This document shows, piece by piece, positions 30,301 through 42,300 of a DNA stretch of 64,000 nucleotides. Numbering within the stretch: position 1 is the stretch's first letter; each line of letters opens with the position of its first letter. Position numbers: made by a program. The DNA comes from Alkalispirochaeta sp. (GTDB lineage: Bacteria > Spirochaetota > Spirochaetia > DSM-27196 > Alkalispirochaetaceae): the NCBI GenBank assembly GCA_965242725.1, contig CBDESZ010000020.1, forward strand, positions 45,602 to 109,601, read 5' to 3'.

Positions 30301-33300
30301 TACCCGAACCGAGGTCTATGAGGACGAAATCGGCGGTGAGGTTGTCCAATTCCTTCAGAATCGCCAGTTTACGCCAGTAGGGGAGGTTGGCGGTACCGCT
30401 GAAGAGGCTGTCGCCGGCGATGAAAAAGAGGCGGTCCTGGGTAGTGGGTACGACCAGCTGTTCCAGGGATTCAACCTTCCTGTTGATGAAATGACCGATG
30501 CCTTCGTGACGGTTGCGGATTCCCAGCACCGTATGGAGGTTGCTTCCCCCCAGATCGAGATCCACGAGAATCACCGTCTTGTTCTGCTGCGCCAGAGATA
30601 TGCCGAGATTTGCGGTGACCAGCGTTTTGCCCACGCCGCCCTTGCCGCTTGCCACAGGTATCCGGTATTGCATCGCCATGTACTATATGCCCTCCGGCGG
30701 GGAGATGCAAAGGGCGGCGGGTCGACGACGGGTGGCGGAGAGGTATCGCAAAACGTGGCTGCGACGGAAATGACGGGTTCGTCGATATTGACCTCCCGGG
30801 AAATCCGTCGGATACTCACACCCGATGAAACAGGATCGGATTATCGACAATGCCATCAGGAAAGTCCCCAACTTTCCCAAGCCGGGAATTTTGTTTTATG
30901 ACCTCACCAGCCTGCTTGCTGCGCCGCATGCATTTGCCCACACCGTAGACCGGATGGAGCAGTTGTACGAAGTGGAAAATCTGGATGCCGTGGCTGCTAT
31001 CGAGGCGCGCGGATTTTTGCTGGCCGCTCCCTTTGCCCTCCGACAGGGGCTGCCTCTCGTACTGTTGCGGAAAAAGGGAAAGCTTCCCGGCCGTGTTTTG
31101 AGCAGGGAGTTTGAACTGGAATATGGCACCGATCGTATAGAGGTTCACCAGGAAGATGTCCCTCAGGGGGGACGCATCCTCGTTGTCGACGATTTGATTG
31201 CCACCGGCGGGACCGTTGAGGCGGCGTGTGAACTGATCGAGGAGGCGGGCGCCGTAGTGGCAGGCGTCTTTGCGGTGGTGGCGCTGCCGTTTCTCAATTT
31301 CCGTGAGAAGCTCGGTGGACGTACCGTTCACTATCTGCAGGAGTACGCGACGGAATAGCGGCCGTCTCCGCGTACGGCTCAGGCGTTGTTGCCGTCGGGA
31401 GCCGGCGTGGACGTTCAGTTGAGCCGGTGCGGGTTCGGCGCGGCGCAATTACGACGGCGGCCCTTCCCCGGGGATCATTCCCCGTGATTGGAGCAGGTAA
31501 AATACTTGACAGAGCGCCGGCGCGACGCTATAGTGCCACCGTTCAAGATTCCCGGTAGTGTAATGGTAGCACCACAGATTCTGGATCTGTTTGTGGGGGT
31601 TCAAGTCCTCCCCGGGAAGCTTCTTGGCCCCTTCGTCTAGTGGCCCAGGACGTGAGATTCTCATTCTCAAAACAGGGGTTCGATTCCCCTAGGGGCTATT
31701 CAGCCGGCAGTCATCGTACTTGCCGGCTTTTTTTATCTCGTTTGCGACCGTTTGAGTTGTCGGAGATAGAATGTTTCACCCCGGTATTTCTTTTCAAGGA
31801 GCTGCCCCGAGCTGATCAGGTCATCGACCAGCGACCAGGGATTCCCGCCTTTTGATACGAGCCGAACCATGTCGTCCCGGCGTACCGGGTGCACGGAGGT
31901 TATGGCGAGAATACCGTCGGCAACGTTGTCGCCGGTATTGAATTCCCCTTCTTCGTGGGTCACATTCAGTTCCGTCTTGATACCGCCGTCACTGAAGGTA
32001 CGATATGCGGTGAGGATTTCCTGTTCGTCCGGTGGTTCAACCCACGACTCGGCGGGAGGGCGTGTCGGAATTGAGAGGTATGCAATATCGGGAGCGATTT
32101 GTGCGATCAGGCGTGCCAGCGCACTCACCTGTTCCGTTGTCGTGTTGAGACCTTTTACAAGCATCGTCTCCGTTGCAAAAACGCCTTGGTAACGTCGCCG
32201 GAACTCTATGATCCCTTCAATGACGGTCCGGTAGTCAAGGGACCGGGAGGGGCGGTCAATCAAACGCCATGTGTGTTCATCGGCGGCATCGATCTTCACG
32301 GAAACCCAGTCCGCCTGTGCTACAGCCGCCGTGACTTCCGGCTTGAAGAGGAGGCTTCCATTGGTAATGACCGCGCAGCGGACATCGCTTTCTTCACCGA
32401 TTCCCTGTAGGAGGGAACCAAGGTTTGTGTCGAGGGTCGGTTCCCCGTCGGGTACGATCGTGACGTAATCAACTCCGTTCTCGTCGCCGTCGTCACGAAG
32501 GACGCAAAGAACCTCGGAAGCCACGTCCACTGGGGCATAGAACTCCTGCAGTTCCGTCGTGACCCGTTGCGGCGCGCCAAGCTGGCAGTAGACACATGCG
32601 TAACTGCAATATTTTGGAGGGATATTGTTGACGCCGAGACTACGTCCCAACCGGCGTGAAGGTACGGGACCATAAATATATTTCATTATACCATAATTGT
32701 AGTTCACCGGCGGCGGCTATGAAAGGGGCGCTTCGACTCCTCCGTCCATGCCGGCGCGTCTACAGGGTATCCAATACCGGTTCAACCCCGAATTGTTACG
32801 GTTCAGGCTACTCGTCCGGGCCGCGACGGATGGAGGACGTACAATGGCCCAACACATTTTCCAAGGAGGATTGTTCGATGAGACGAAACAGCATAGTACT
32901 GTTCCTGATTCTCACTGCGACGCTTGCCTTTGCGTCGGGAACCCAGGAAGGGGCGGCGGCGGACCAGCCGGAAGAACGGGAGCTTGTGGTATACAGCACC
33001 ATATTTGCTGAATATGCCGAAGCGATGAAAGAGGGATTCGAGGCACTTCATCCCGGTGTCACCGTGCATGTACTGAACCCCGGTGGAACCGAGGCGATGT
33101 TCATGAAACTGGAGTCGGAGCGTGAAAATCCCCAGGCCGATGTCGTTCACGCCGGGTCCATGATCAACTACCAGAATGCGGTAAATCTGGGGCTTCTTGA
33201 ACCATATGCGCCTCAGGCGCCGGGCTTTCAATCCTCCATCCCGGTTGGTGACGGGCAGCTGAACCTGAGTCATCCCGAAGACTACTACCACGTATGGTCG

Positions 33301-39300: not shown

Positions 39301-42300
39301 AGGGACCACGGAGCTACCCCCTTTGACGAGGAAGCTCTCGTTTCCGGGAGCGGTACGGGATTGCGTAACGTGGAGGGACGTCTCTATGCGCTGTATGGGC
39401 GGCATCTGCAATTTGAACGATTCCCTGATGGTGGACTGAGGGTAATTATGACCCTGCCGGAACGGAAGGAATGACATGGAAAGACCGGTCATACGTATTT
39501 GCATTATTGACGACGAATTTCGTGCCCGGCGGCGCATCGCACATCTCCTTGAGGCCGAGAAACGGTGCACGGTGGTAGGCGAGGCCGATAACGGCGGAGA
39601 CGCCGTGGAACTGATCGACCGGGAAAAGCCGGATCTGGTCTTCCTCGATATACGCATGCCCGGCCTGAGCGGGTTTCAGGTACTGCAGCGAGCTCTTCAC
39701 CGTCCCGCGGTAATATTCGTCACCGCCTACGACGAGCACGCCGTACAGGCATTTGAAGTTCACGCGGTGGACTACCTGCTCAAGCCGTTTCCGGACGAAC
39801 GATTTCGTGATGCCCTTAGGCGCGCGACGGAACGCGTGTGGCCGCCGTCGGGATCCGATGCGGCCGCACACAATACGGCAGCGTCCAATATCGCCGGCGA
39901 CGAAGAAACTGACGGGCTCGTGCCGGCGTTGGCGGGCGGCGTGGGCGAGGCGCTCCTTGCGGAGCTGCAGCGGCTGACATATGGCCCCGACCGGCGCACC
40001 GCGGAGGACGGCAACGCAGTTCGGGAAGCGGAAACGGGACATCCCGTACTGGAACGTGTCCCGGTACGCCGGGGATTTGAATTTGAAATGGTACCCGTGG
40101 CCGGCGTTGACTACTTCACCGTTATCGACGGTCTCGTTTTTCTCGTACGGGACGGACGACGAGTCGTTGTAGACCATACGCTCTCAGAGCTGGAATTGCG
40201 GCTCGACGCTCGTAAATTCATGCGGGTCCACCGCAAAAGCCTGGTGAATATCAATAGGGTCGAACGCGTGGTGCCCTGGGGGCGTGGCCGCATCGCCCTC
40301 CATTTCACTGGTGAAGAAGAAGCGGAGCCCGTACACGTCGGTCGGGACCGCACCCAGGAAGTGAAGAGGCGTCTGGGAATCCCCTGACGTGAACCCCGAA
40401 AACCTTGTTTTCATCGGTATGCTGCAGGTACTATGCATCCATGAGCAGCCGGCCGGAACACCCCTTCGATGTCTACTATAAACGCGGATGGATCTATGTT
40501 GTGGTTCGTCCCGGCGAAGGGGGTGCGGAGGCCGTGCGGCCACCGGTTTATCCCGAGGACATTGAAAACCGCATGCGCCTTCTGGGAATGCCGAAAGTTC
40601 GATCGGGCGTGCTCCTCCGCCTCATCGACGAAGCGACGGGGGAGGCGGAGCGCCTTGTAAAGTGGCCGGAAGGCGAGCGCCTGGCTTCACGCATCTCCGT
40701 GGCGATATCGGACGATGAGATGAGCGCTTCCATTTCAGTAACAAAACCGCGTCGGGGCGCCGTCGGCCCCGACAGGGAAGACATCCTCAAGGCCCTTGAC
40801 GCCGCCGGTGTGACATTCGGAATCGATGAGGATGCAATCGCCGAGTTTCTTGCACACCCTCGTTACGACGAAAAGACAACCGTCGCCGTCGGAGGCGAGC
40901 CCGTATCCGGATCGGCACGCCGCGTGGAATACCGCTTCAAAGTGGATCGGGGAAAACCGTACCTCCAGATGCCCTTTGACCGCATCAACCTGCGGGAACT
41001 GAACTTTGTGGACAACAGGAAAGAGGGTGACGTTCTCGCTGTTCTCCTTCCTCCCGTGAAGGCGAAGGACGGGAAAACGGTCACGGGTACCACCATTCCC
41101 GCCGCTACCGACGAGACCGTGGTGATCCTCCCGGCGGGAGAAAATACCCGCCTTGACGAGGAGGGGACCGAACTCATCGCCGCCTGTGACGGGAATGTCC
41201 GTTTTCACAACGGACTGGTGATCGTGGAACCGGTAATCGAGGTGGAGAACGTCAATTATGAGACGGGAAATATTCACTTTGACGGATCGGTGGTTGTTGC
41301 GGGAAGCGTCGCCGACGGCTTCATCGTGGAAGCGGGAGGATCTATACAGATCGGACGGGGCGTCGGACGGGCGCAACTCCGGGCAGGCGAAAATATACTC
41401 CTCACCAGCGGCATGAACGGAAACGGCGAAGGTGTTCTCGAGTGCGGCGGAAATCTCTTTGCCCGGTATATCGAGAGTGCGACGGTCCGGTGCAAGGGCA
41501 ACGTTCTTGTCGAAGAGGCGATTCTCCACTCGACAATCACCGTCTGGAATCACTGTATCCTCAATGGACGACGGGCGGAGTGCATCGGCGGTGAGCTCAT
41601 TGTCGGAGGAAGTCTCTGGTGCCGGAAGCTGGGTAATCGTAACGACGCACAGACCCTCGTCGCCATCGGCGTTCCGCCGGAACTCTTTGAGGAGTACCGC
41701 ACCGCCCGGGGAGAGCTGGACGCCAAGGAGGATGAGGTGGAAGAACTTGAAGAAAAACTCCGCCGCATAGAACGGGCGATCGACGACGGCAGGACCGATG
41801 AAAAGTACCTTGCCGCCCGGGAGCAGCTGAGGATAGATCTCGCCCGGGAGGGCGTCCAGATCGACGTCCTGCGTCGCCGAGTGCCTGCTCTACGGGATCG
41901 CCTTGATCCGACTACGGCGAGTTTTGTCGTCGCCGAGGAGACAATCTTCAACGGCGTCACCGTCACCTTCGGTAAACAGGAGTATCGCGTGCCCCAGACG
42001 GGCACCCGGAAGGCACTTCTCCACGTCACCCGTGACGCCATCAAGGTGGAAGGATTCAACCGCCAGACACCACCCAAAATCGAGTTTACCCTGCCGGTGT
42101 AGCGTCGGCTGCATATGCCTCGGCTTCCGCCGTCGGGCACAAGTCCGCCGTTTCCGGACTTCCGTCGCGGACGTCGACCGTCCGATGCCGACGGTCAGAC
42201 TTTGGCCCTCGACCCCGCACGCCTCGTAGGATACACTCACCGATAAACATGATAAATAAACTCATAAAAACAGGGGAAGAACGATGCAGGTAACCGTATT

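Follow-up and report, generated by a model that had tools for sequence, protein, structure and literature searches.

A second permease paralogue fused to a LytS/YesM-type histidine kinase: a candidate transporter-derived receptor in an uptake operon of Alkalispirochaeta sp.

The window analysed here, a stretch of 64,000 nucleotides from the draft genome of Alkalispirochaeta sp. (34 contigs, 91.8% complete), contains a five-gene operon on the + strand (32878-40387). ORF and Pfam analysis identified, in order, a solute-binding protein (SBP), a 12-TM double permease, an ATPase, a fusion of a permease to a PAS domain and a LytS/YesM-type kinase, and a LytTR regulator. The first three genes make up a complete type I ABC importer; the fourth encodes a second, faster-evolving permease paralogue, whose cytoplasmic C-terminus is joined by a long flexible linker (and, in the long form, a PAS domain) to an intact LytS/YesM-type kinase. 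We infer, with somewhat better than even confidence, that the cassette is a transporter-derived receptor within a self-regulating uptake operon. If so, transporter machinery would serve the cell to sense a nutrient and to turn on the operon. The features are as follows.

32778..32805, + strand: candidate LytTR operator; direct repeat CGGTTCA-N14-CGGTTCA, period 21 bp, lying 100 bp 5' of the SBP start codon
32840..32845, + strand: -10-like hexamer TACAAT, 34 bp 3' of the repeat; read from sequence
32863-32869, + strand: ribosome-binding site AAGGAGG; read from sequence
32878..33951, + strand: SBP, 357 aa, periplasmic, AfuA/P5PA-like; SBP_bac_6/1/8/11
34010..34026, + strand: terminator-like hairpin in the SBP-permease intergenic region; candidate, from a consensus scan alone (16 matches vs 9.8 expected in shuffles)
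34052..35692, + strand: double permease of the transporter itself, 12 TM, 546 aa; BPD_transp_1 twice
35685..36776, + strand: ABC ATPase, 363 aa; ABC_tran and C-terminal TOBE_2
36817-39474, + strand: fusion ORF, 885 aa from GTG; 901 aa if TTG 36769 is used
36769..38391, + strand: fusion membrane domain, aa 1-541 of 901; 12-TM double permease, paralogue of 34052-35692
37264..37353, + strand: EAA coupling loop 1, aa 166-195; motif kept, predicted contact with ATPase copy 1
38080..38166, + strand: EAA coupling loop 2, aa 438-466; motif kept, predicted contact with ATPase copy 2
38392..38553, + strand: linker, aa 542-595; predicted disordered; includes a short DALE..LGR.P stretch that is semi-conserved
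38554..38838, + strand: cytoplasmic PAS domain, aa 596-690; from the AlphaFold2 model, Foldseek and homologue domains
38845..39474, + strand: kinase core, aa 693-901; His_kinase PF06580 and HATPase_c, His722 codon at 38932-38934
39476..40387, + strand: response regulator, 303 aa; receiver (Response_reg) and LytTR DNA-binding domain

The reading frame of the earlier 885-aa gene call was upheld. TTG 36769, giving 901 aa, is a more likely start than its GTG: it lies within an 8-nt overlap with the end of the ATPase gene and restores the full TM1 and a homologue-like basic N-terminus, and P0001, the database representative, has the same length of 901 aa. The ORF analysis revealed no stop or frameshift within the fusion gene.

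Pfam analysis of the fusion (885-aa numbering) found BPD_transp_1 in two stretches (best 78-249) followed by His_kinase (PF06580; 694-773) and HATPase_c (792-883), the LytS/YesM-type architecture reported in the survey's finding. The 12-TM topology given there also agreed with the AlphaFold2 model of the membrane part, which has 12 TM helices at a pLDDT mostly >90. The nearest solved fold of this domain by Foldseek was Thermus FbpB (9j4r_A; TM-score 0.83 normalised to the target), and the model supports a complete double permease of FbpB-like, 12-TM build as the input module. The kinase core has 34% identity to the GanS kinase domain (6swj), and P721, H722, F725, N726, the N-box E814/N815 and the G-box G862-G864 were invariant or nearly so across fusions.

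Pairwise alignment of the fusion membrane part with the adjacent permease gave 204 identical residues out of 501 (41%; E 1e-122) with 2 gaps, and in a whole-genome search the adjacent permease matched fusion aa 2-536 at 41% (E 7e-127), so that the paralogy previously proposed was recovered at the same identity. In a tree, the membrane domains of 13 fusions grouped with 11 adjacent permeases in one clade (SH-aLRT 100), with all 10 plain permeases of the comparison set falling outside it. The fusion copies may stem from a single old duplication. Judged by sequence divergence the permease duplication is old and not a recent local copy, because it is older than the divergence of loci in which the fusions share only 28-55% identity; of the proposal that the module was duplicated from the adjacent transporter, the paralogy stands and recent local copying does not.

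Mean pairwise identity was 40% among fusion membrane domains compared to 65-67% among the co-located permeases, and 149 columns that were invariant in the permeases varied in the fusions, compared to four in the opposite direction. Between the window and three related loci (L021-L023), identity of the transport genes was 78-83% (SBP), 74-75% (permease) and 70-71% (ATPase), and that of the signalling parts was 54-55% (fusion membrane domain), 50-51% (kinase) and 52-54% (regulator). By these identities the membrane copy in the fusion keeps pace with the kinase and regulator, not with the transporter. This faster evolution is equally compatible with a mere anchor and with a receptor. Both EAA loops are retained in the window fusion, as had been noted, and the motif was present in 12/12 fusions covering loop 1 and 13/13 for loop 2. 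The best-retained segments of the fusions included the EAA loops, the GDxGxPLxxGG motif and both periplasmic TM5-TM6 loops. Other segments were poorly kept despite a highly conserved SBP, namely 315-338 (0.24 vs 0.56) and 270-284 (0.17 vs 0.64); the poorly kept segments comprise periplasmic and cytoplasmic ones, which was counted against a receptor.

Docking of the fusion membrane domain (17-541) with two copies of the ATPase (1-237) gave a score of 0.63 compared to 0.00 for the best control; in calibration, 116 of 157 solved complexes attained this mark, as did 2 of 215 mismatched pairs. As a comparable complex has already been solved, this shows likeness and not binding. The runs shared at least 93% of contacts with a partner pLDDT of at least 83, and the predicted contacts were exactly the two EAA loops. 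Permease and ATPase are a textbook pair, and the predicted docking may simply reproduce complexes already solved. At the 37 predicted ATPase-contact positions, identity between the paralogues was 46% compared to 34% for random position sets, a value attained by 1.1% of 2000 random sets, although this is a rough control because the contact positions are clustered. From the EAA-loop conservation and the predicted docking we infer that the membrane module may read the SBP or the ATPase cycle.

The same retained features could mean that the fusion is a working second importer subunit, of other affinity or capacity for example, with a kinase that reports its own flux. The hallmarks of a type I importer (12 TM helices, EAA loops, GDxGxPLxxGG and predicted ATPase docking) are kept across fusions that are only 28-55% identical, and CbrA has been described with both transport and kinase activities (PMC7096432). 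We nevertheless regard this as unlikely. A complete, slowly evolving separate permease accompanied the fusion in 10/10 loci with full context, the fusion never being the sole permease, so a second importer subunit is unnecessary; the largely one-sided loss of permease-invariant columns and the kinase-like pace of the membrane domain also speak against it, and in the Amt-kinase precedent efficient transport was lost (PMC8534201).

The linker between membrane domain and kinase bears on a second alternative. The ~55 residues separating TM12 from the PAS domain were predicted to be disordered (ten-residue block means of pLDDT dropping to 35-54 over aa 541-590), with a sequence that is variable and gappy in alignment. 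A mechanical path from membrane domain to kinase is not visible in the model, which was counted against a receptor. The PAS domain (aa ~596-690, 901-aa numbering), which was missing from the earlier description, was modelled as a five-stranded sheet with helices (block-mean pLDDT 87-94) and matched LOV/PAS-kinases in Foldseek (e.g., 4gcz). PAS_8/PAS_9 were found in homologues aligned to fusion aa 578-881, with no PAS match in a Pfam search of the window fusion itself. PAS domains commonly bind cytoplasmic ligands, and the 12-TM domain might merely position the kinase near the real transporter while the signal, such as the imported compound binding to PAS, is read in the cytoplasm. The disordered linker, the relaxed constraint on the membrane domain and the PAS-kinase core shared by the closest non-fused kinases fit such a scaffold. 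However, the short-form subfamily lacks PAS and still keeps the 12-TM domain and the cassette, the EAA and periplasmic TM5-TM6 loops are selectively retained, and two TM helices would be enough for an anchor, as in a paralogous kinase on L004, so that we consider it decidedly improbable. The absence of PAS from short-form fusions was also counted against a receptor.

The cassette is known from nine further loci besides the window, in the long form with PAS or the short form without. The gene order SBP, permease, ATPase, permease-kinase fusion and LytTR regulator, as the survey's finding gave it, was confirmed and is kept in all 10 loci with full context, seven of them checked by Pfam (window, L021, L097, L099, L101, L102, L103) and three resting on ORF order and alignment (L022, L023, L098). 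In each locus that extends far enough, a LytTR regulator lies 3' of the fusion. A search of 1.84 billion representatives at 50% identity placed 11 family members in its best 150, comprising the window's own protein, seven others with both Pfam domains and three fragments aligning over the junction.

The family is rare and genuine and is not an artefact. Its rarity (2/99 genomes of the order, one with fragments only; 1/401 sampled genomes of the phylum with a short-form query) and a locus that is broken into pieces (L024) would suit a decaying product of chance read-through from a duplicated permease into a kinase gene, with no role of its own, but this already disfavoured explanation is very improbable given the intact frames of fusions sharing 28-55% identity from no fewer than 13 independent assemblies, invariant kinase catalytic residues and conserved gene order. 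An assembly or gene-calling error joining two genes, for which no supporting evidence was found, has a negligible probability and is refuted for practical purposes by the identical architecture in other assemblies, by separately assembled contigs from four runs of one sample (possibly the window's source) with 0 differences over 35600-40500, and by the uninterrupted frame.

The exact repeat CGGTTCA-N14-CGGTTCA upstream of the SBP gene is the sole instance on either strand of the 4.34-Mb genome (reversed control 0) and arose in 2 of 20000 shuffles of the window's 250-bp upstream region. The pattern CGG[TC]TC[AG]-N14-CGG[TC]TC[AG] was present in 3/3 long-form loci with upstream DNA, at -100, -113 (L021) and -114 (L022), with 0-2 of 20000 shuffles at each locus. 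The patterns were derived from these same loci, but the window's own pattern is nonetheless unchanged in L021. Four of six short-form loci carried C[CT][CT]TCA pairs at 21-bp spacing, L099 with three in phase; the repeat is absent from L102, and the one in L103 is spaced at 20 bp. A pattern with up to two mismatches is expected 0.74 times per window, and this looser test alone was not significant. The LytTR regulator may bind the 32778..32805 repeats, and the 21-bp-spaced repeats suggest that the operon is autoregulated. TACAAT or TACACT was found at the matching place in L021 and L022; the consensus promoter scan listed no full promoter at 32840..32845, because a good -35 is absent.

The nearest solved structures to the SBP were P5PA (6wce; E 2e-25) and AfuA (4r72; E 2e-23), with FbpA-type iron binders at E 1e-5 or weaker, so the earlier 'FbpB-type' label holds for the architecture and not for an iron ligand. 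The best NCBIfam match of the SBP was phnS2 (133 bits, cut-off 393); those of the adjacent permease (PhnU2/ThiP-like) and the regulator (BtsR) were also below cut-offs. Residues aligned with phosphate-binding positions are GGT, SST and SSS, and these motifs were invariant across 10 cassette SBPs. The ligand is probably a phosphorylated or other anionic small organic compound and not iron, and probably differs from the AfuA/P5PA ligands because the ring-contacting His is replaced by Arg.

As a transporter-derived receptor, the cassette might work as follows. The fusion membrane domain, with import no longer its main role, would use both retained EAA loops to join a dimer of the one ATPase that the operon encodes, and would offer a second docking platform for the liganded SBP. 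The activity of the tethered kinase would change when the SBP docks or as this signalling complex runs through its ATP-driven conformational cycle. Since the linker is disordered, a rigid helix is an improbable route; more probably the linker, the PAS domain or the kinase touches the ATPase or cytoplasmic face in a state-dependent manner. The kinase would then phosphorylate the LytTR regulator, which would bind the 21-bp-spaced repeats 5' of the SBP gene and activate the whole operon.

No paper on an ABC permease-histidine kinase fusion was found in the literature, and the cassette appears to be a novel variety among transporter-kinase fusions. Transporters act as sensors for kinases in UhpC-UhpB-UhpA, where the MFS transporter homologue UhpC is the sensor and a sugar phosphate is sensed, and in PstSCAB-PhoU-PhoR, where the ABC importer Pst signals through PhoU. 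To our knowledge these are separate polypeptides, with no duplicated ABC membrane domain fused to a kinase. The importer part resembles AfuABC, P5PA-type importers and Thermus FbpBC in having a single copy each of SBP, fused double permease and ATPase (PMC4546632, PMC8427247, 4r72, 6wce, 9j4r), for which the excerpts describe no kinase fusion. The window SBP shares Gly/Ser/Thr at the positions aligned to phosphate-binding residues of AfuA/P5PA but matches them only at E 2e-23/2e-25, with the Arg substitution.

The kinase BceS senses how active the BceAB transporter is (PMC8534201), and its regulator induces the transporter operon (PMC4513084, PMC8534201, PMC11109136), as proposed here. There, however, kinase and transporter are separate proteins with no paralogous sensing permease copy described, and BceAB, which carries a large extracellular loop, detoxifies peptides and does not import with an SBP. 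KsAmt5 from 'Ca. Kuenenia stuttgartiensis', an ammonium-transporter domain with a histidine kinase, and the related Amt-HAMP-diguanylate cyclase Sd-Amt1 resemble the proposed receptor in feeding a fused signalling enzyme from a complete transporter membrane domain (PMC5764959, PMC11152129, PMC8534201), and KsAmt5 keeps transporter features while translocating inefficiently (PMC8534201; PMC5764959). Unlike this channel-like Amt trimer, a type I ABC importer membrane domain needs an ATPase and SBP, and the KsAmt5 excerpts describe no adjoining parent transporter with shared partner subunits. CbrA, CrbS and MxtR, as excerpted, fuse a secondary-transporter-like SLC5 solute symporter domain (12-14 TM) and a STAC domain to a kinase controlling nutrient use (PMC7096432, PMC5715377, PMC11109136); the window fusion has neither SLC5 nor STAC by Pfam, and instead combines an EAA-loop ABC importer subunit with a PF06580 kinase and a LytTR partner. 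That core and partner, the latter typically controlling a transporter gene, are shared with LytS/BtsS-type kinases, whose 5TMR-LYT input has a fold common to ECF S-components according to the cited excerpts (PMC11109136, PMC10653868). Their link to a transporter component is one of fold only, whereas the input of the window fusion is 41% identical to the adjacent permease and belongs to another ABC class, the type I importers.

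Five closely spaced genes, all on the plus strand of the window, make up the cassette (Pfam domains are given after each gene):

32878-33951, plus strand: SBP gene; SBP_bac_6/1/8/11
34052-35692, plus strand: double permease gene, 546 aa; BPD_transp_1 twice
35685-36776, plus strand: ABC ATPase gene; ABC ATPase domain and TOBE_2
36769/36817-39474, plus strand: fusion gene; BPD_transp_1 twice, His_kinase (PF06580) and HATPase_c
39476-40387, plus strand: response regulator gene, 303 aa; receiver (Response_reg) and LytTR

The survey's finding was of a permease and a LytS/YesM-type kinase in one chain, the permease part duplicated from the neighbouring gene; the observation was confirmed and its interpretation supported. 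Pfam placed two BPD_transp_1 stretches in the fusion chain together with the two kinase domains, and a collinear match to the PhnU2 and ThiP models extended over aa 6-520. The first ~500 residues are collinear with the neighbouring permease with 2 gaps and 41% identity (204/501; E 1e-122), and each half retains an EAA coupling motif, EES-A...G...LP (aa 172 and aa 443), which is present in all aligned fusions. The 4.34-Mb genome has no other such protein, and the neighbouring permease is the fusion's closest relative there. The fusion probably starts at TTG 36769, giving 901 aa, because this codon overlaps the ATPase stop, completes TM1 as in homologues and makes the product match a 901-aa database representative. 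The phospho-accepting histidine (H722), the N box (E814/N815) and the G box (G862-G864) are conserved in the His_kinase and HATPase_c domains, and the kinase core and the GanS kinase domain (6swj) share 34% identity. A gene with Response_reg and LytTR domains lies directly 3' of the fusion in the window and in other loci, and BtsR was the nearest NCBIfam model to the window's regulator. Pfam gave no match in the fusion to 5TMR-LYT, the membrane input domain of LytS/BtsS proper, the membrane part being BPD_transp_1, and detected neither the SLC5 symporter nor the STAC domain of the CbrA/CrbS type. Bce-type modules pair a separate intramembrane-sensing kinase with an ABC transporter that has a large extracellular loop; the window's protein departs from them in its fused kinase and in a permease of the BPD_transp_1 importer class. 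The region's strongest terminator-like hairpin (36810-36834; 11 pairs, 8 of them G-C, then a T-rich tail) lies in the fusion's first codons just past the ATPase stop and covers the alternative GTG start (36817). This hairpin might hold the sensor and regulator at a lower level of expression than the transporter genes.

The transport genes were nearest to the NCBIfam PhnS2/U2/T2 models ('putative 2-aminoethylphosphonate'), with scores far under the cut-offs. The nearest solved relative of the SBP was P5PA (6wce; E 2e-25), followed by AfuA (4r72; E 2e-23), described as binding pyridoxal-phosphate and sugar-phosphate, respectively (PMC8427247, PMC4546632). FbpA-type iron binders gave best matches of E 8e-8 to 1e-5, far weaker than P5PA in what is a comparison of overall similarity only. 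At the Gly/Ser/Thr positions reported to hold the phosphate in P5PA and AfuA, the SBP has GGT, GS, SST and SSS (alignment read against the account in PMC8427247, residue numbering matched by hand), and these motifs are invariant in 10 cassette SBPs save for a GS to GD change. The ring-contacting His203/205 aligns to Arg, and the Tyr103 region is gapped and uncertain. The 'iron(III)' label of such permeases is therefore doubtful, since P5PA and AfuA are closest, the FbpA-type matches are weaker and the phosphate-site motifs are almost invariant; by sequence the ligand is more likely a phosphorylated or otherwise anionic organic compound.

The gene order SBP, permease, ATPase, fusion and LytTR regulator, which the survey had read as an operon, was shared by all 10 loci with sufficient flanks, the window included. 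Seven were checked with Pfam (the window and the homologous loci L021, L097, L099, L101, L102 and L103), and three by ORF order and alignment only (L022, L023 and L098). The window's regulator is longer than nine complete related regulators (303 aa compared to 250-269 aa; L020-L025, L097-L102, L104), the extra residues sitting between the receiver and LytTR domains. Downstream of it lies a FapA-family gene (FapA_N and FapA; 40405-42102). Such a gene also comes after the regulator in the 71%-identical fragment L020 (1722-2750) and is absent from that place in L021 (TrkH/TrkA instead) and in short-form loci, those whose fusion lacks a PAS domain; it may or may not be part of the cassette unit. 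In one spirochaete MAG the regulator is followed by another SBP gene (L025, 3051-4139) with the same Pfam assignments, and the permease and ATPase of this MAG are located on a different contig (L026). Two tRNA genes (31549-31698, plus strand) lie just upstream of a divergent radical-SAM gene (31733-32707, minus strand), and an Rfam scan of 31000-43000 (E <= 0.1) returned these two tRNAs only and no riboswitch.

LytTR regulators such as AgrA and BtsR use direct repeats with ~21 bp between starts. A candidate operator was located upstream of the cassette:

32778-32805, plus strand: direct repeat CGGTTCA-N14-CGGTTCA, 100 bp before the SBP ATG

This repeat occurs once in the genome and is followed by TACAAT, read by eye as -10-like, and then AAGGAGG; a consensus promoter scan listed nothing sigma-70-like from the repeats to the start of the SBP gene. 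The same core with a 21-bp period was found at -113 in L021 and -114 in L022, after correction of both SBP start codons, with 0-2 of 20000 shuffles per locus matching. The window's own pattern recurs unchanged in L021, the patterns having been derived from these same loci. Pairs of C[CT][CT]TCA at 21 bp were present in four of the six short-form loci (-92 to -124), with three copies in phase in L099; L102 had no repeat and L103 a 20-bp pair. A repeat search of the window allowing up to 2 mismatches yielded 1 match against 0.74 expected, which is not significant alone. We infer from these repeats that the LytTR regulator may activate its own operon. A second direct repeat (32669-32706; two copies of 17 nt, 82% identical, period 21 bp) lies at the 5' end of the divergent radical-SAM ORF; should that gene begin at its eighth codon, the repeat would be just upstream. 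Its best 12-mer match was reached in 4/100 shuffles.

An AlphaFold2 model of the fusion (77-row alignment; mean pLDDT 87.6) contained the following parts:

aa 1-541: 12 TM helices, pLDDT mostly above 90
aa 542-595: linker, predicted disordered, ten-residue block means down to 35-54
aa 596-690: PAS-like alpha/beta domain, block means 87-94
C-terminal to the PAS: DHp and catalytic domains

The membrane part was nearest to Thermus FbpB in a Foldseek search (9j4r_A; TM-score 0.83 normalised to the target) and also matched ModB, PotC and MalG (0.70-0.83), with a 6+6 TM fold as in solved importers; the PAS-kinase region matched LOV/PAS-kinases and the kinase core matched the GanS kinase domain. The model and the basic N-terminus suggest that both termini are cytoplasmic, a topology that would place the PAS and kinase in the cytoplasm. 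When the membrane domain (aa 17-541) was folded together with the ATPase nucleotide-binding domain (aa 1-237) in two copies, the docking score was 0.63 compared to 0.00 for the best control. Of 157 solved complexes 116 attained this mark, as did 2 of 215 mismatched pairs, although this is a textbook pair and the pass may reflect what the predictor has learned from solved complexes. Contact agreement between runs was at least 93%, with partner pLDDT of at least 83, and the predicted contacts joined both EAA loops to residues 50-103 and 143-150 of each ATPase copy. The fusion thus still appears to resemble a docking-competent membrane subunit, which is likeness rather than binding because type I importer complexes have already been solved.

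We propose, as the most probable reading, that the fusion is a receptor derived from a transporter. In a further-reaching version of this reading it would form a signalling ABC complex, in which a weakly or non-transporting copy of the membrane subunit would dock the shared ATPase dimer and the liganded SBP and convert docking or the ATP cycle to kinase output. This version is tentative, and we place it at slightly below an even chance. The fusion would share the transporter's ATPase, and probably the SBP too, and would turn the operon on. The signal might pass if the linker, PAS or kinase touched the ATPase in a state-dependent way, or alternatively through control of kinase dimerisation. Coupling is the weak point of the receptor reading. 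Between TM12 and the PAS (which the short form lacks) lie ~55 poorly conserved residues predicted to be disordered, and because this linker is flexible the signal cannot run along a rigid helix. A flexible linker makes steric sense if the ATPase dimer fills the cytoplasmic face. In long-form fusions, those with a PAS, a short semi-conserved DALE..LGR.P stretch (aa 552-565; 38422-38463) lies inside the variable linker and may be a docking motif. Among the rival readings, a bifunctional protein that still transports is rather unlikely; on transport the evidence is indirect, the membrane domain being under looser conservation than the adjacent permease.

The fusions retain the EAA loops, a GDxGxPLxxGG motif and the periplasmic TM5-TM6 loops of each half, and 37 predicted ATPase-contact positions are 46% identical between the paralogues compared to 34% in random sets, with 1.1% of 2000 sets reaching 46%, a rough control since contact positions cluster. 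A separate permease accompanies the fusion in 10/10 loci and the fusion is never the sole permease. Of the two copies, the fusion's is by far the faster-evolving. Mean pairwise identity is 40% for fusion membrane domains compared to 65-67% for the adjacent permeases, and 149 alignment columns are invariant in the permeases and vary in the fusions, with 4 in the reverse state and 38 invariant in both.

Identity of each component between the window and L021-L023
SBP: 78-83%
Permease: 74-75%
ATPase: 70-71%
Fusion membrane domain: 54-55%
Kinase: 50-51%
Regulator: 52-54%

The duplicated membrane domain therefore drifts with the signalling genes and not with the transporter. A maximum-likelihood tree of membrane domains (LG+G4, quick search) grouped the 13 fusion domains with 11 adjacent permeases in one clade (SH-aLRT 100), leaving 10 plain permeases outside. 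A single old duplication is possible and no firmer than that, because the two fusion groups and two permease groups were not separated within the clade.

A comparison of the fusion with 1.84 billion cluster representatives (50% identity) put 11 members of its family among the best 150, the window's own protein included. The full-length other members were P0004 (917 aa), P0005 (901 aa), P0006 (840 aa) and P0010 (787 aa), the fragmentary ones P0002, P0003, P0007, P0009, P0014 and P0015, and 7 of these 10 among the best 150 carried both Pfam domains. The long form comprises the window, P0002-P0005 and P0007, and the short form P0006, P0010, P0014 and P0015. A mere membrane anchor, with sensing by the cytoplasmic PAS, is an improbable account of a family that includes fusions with a PAS and fusions without one. 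A locus search with a 4-sequence alignment and patterns fitting the long form alone, over one genome per GTDB species, found the long form solely in records titled spirochaete MAGs: L021, L022 and L023 are complete, L025 and L026 are split over two contigs, L020 is a fragment and L024 is in pieces. The other ~70 loci of this search were ordinary kinases. The short form was found in metagenome contigs (L097-L104); L100, L104 and L105 were cut or duplicate contexts analysed partially, and the fragmented L024 was excluded from the tree and counts. The fusion occurred in 2 of 99 genomes of the order, one of them with fragments only. When P0006 served as the short-form query, 401 genomes sampled from the phylum (2 candidates scored in each) gave no match at E <= 1e-60 outside the window's genome. 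Four other genomes contained open frames of 738-894 aa that matched the permease; examined as candidate fusions, these were rejected as plain permeases, extended or read through at the N-terminus and lacking any signalling domain. The cassette is rare, conserved and coherent, its function being proposed from sequence, and we give very little credence to a functionless fusion. An artefact is negligible as an explanation, and contigs assembled separately from four runs of a single sample, which may be the source of the window, covered 35600-40500 with 0 differences.

L024 (6428-11708; record titled Spirochaetia bacterium) contains a broken cassette, with the SBP truncated to 233 aa, the ATPase intact, the second half alone of the permease (325 aa), and, of the fusion, an incomplete permease joined to the PAS (372 aa), the kinase lying in a different frame (195 aa). 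Either gene decay or faulty assembly would account for this breakage.

Among non-fused kinases the closest, one of them a protein of 698 aa on another contig of the window's genome (L004), have two TM helices, a periplasmic domain, a PAS and the same kinase core. L004 carries a paralogous system (151-3730), whose kinase (PAS_8, His_kinase and HATPase_c) shares 39% identity with the fusion over aa 639-881 and is followed by a 254-aa regulator and a putative SBP gene, by eye LytTR-type and TRAP-type, respectively; the fusion's kinase half therefore comes from a family already adjoining transporter genes. In agreement with the survey, nothing in the literature searched described a kinase whose fused input is the membrane domain of an SBP-dependent ABC importer. 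In Pst, a kinase listens to a separate ABC transporter, and BceS is described as reading the separate BceAB transporter. CbrA and CrbS are described as SLC5-kinase fusions. KsAmt5 is an Amt-kinase fusion (PMC5764959; PMC8534201), and the section 'HKs fused to transporters' of a 2021 review names KsAmt5 alone (PMC8534201). The input of LytS-type kinases is reported to share its fold with ECF S-components, a fold-level case before which, by that account, transceptors had been reported only in eukaryotes (PMC11109136).

If the fusion does act in a signalling ABC complex, it would represent a previously undescribed input mechanism for two-component systems, with positive feedback on the operon built in, and a prokaryotic 'transceptor' visible at the sequence level with its parent transporter encoded alongside. 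Parent and derivative, adjacent and sharing the SBP and ATPase, would be a clean natural experiment in receptor-from-transporter evolution, showing which transporter features a receptor must retain and posing the testable question of whether an ABC conformational cycle can drive a kinase. It would also offer a biosensor route, in which a LytTR promoter would couple transcription to the very broad range of ligands that SBPs bind. Whereas the known fused kinases carry Amt and SLC5 domains, and the kinase and ABC transporter are separate in Bce and Pst, the window's kinase is fused to a permease copy, the membrane domain of an SBP-dependent ABC importer.
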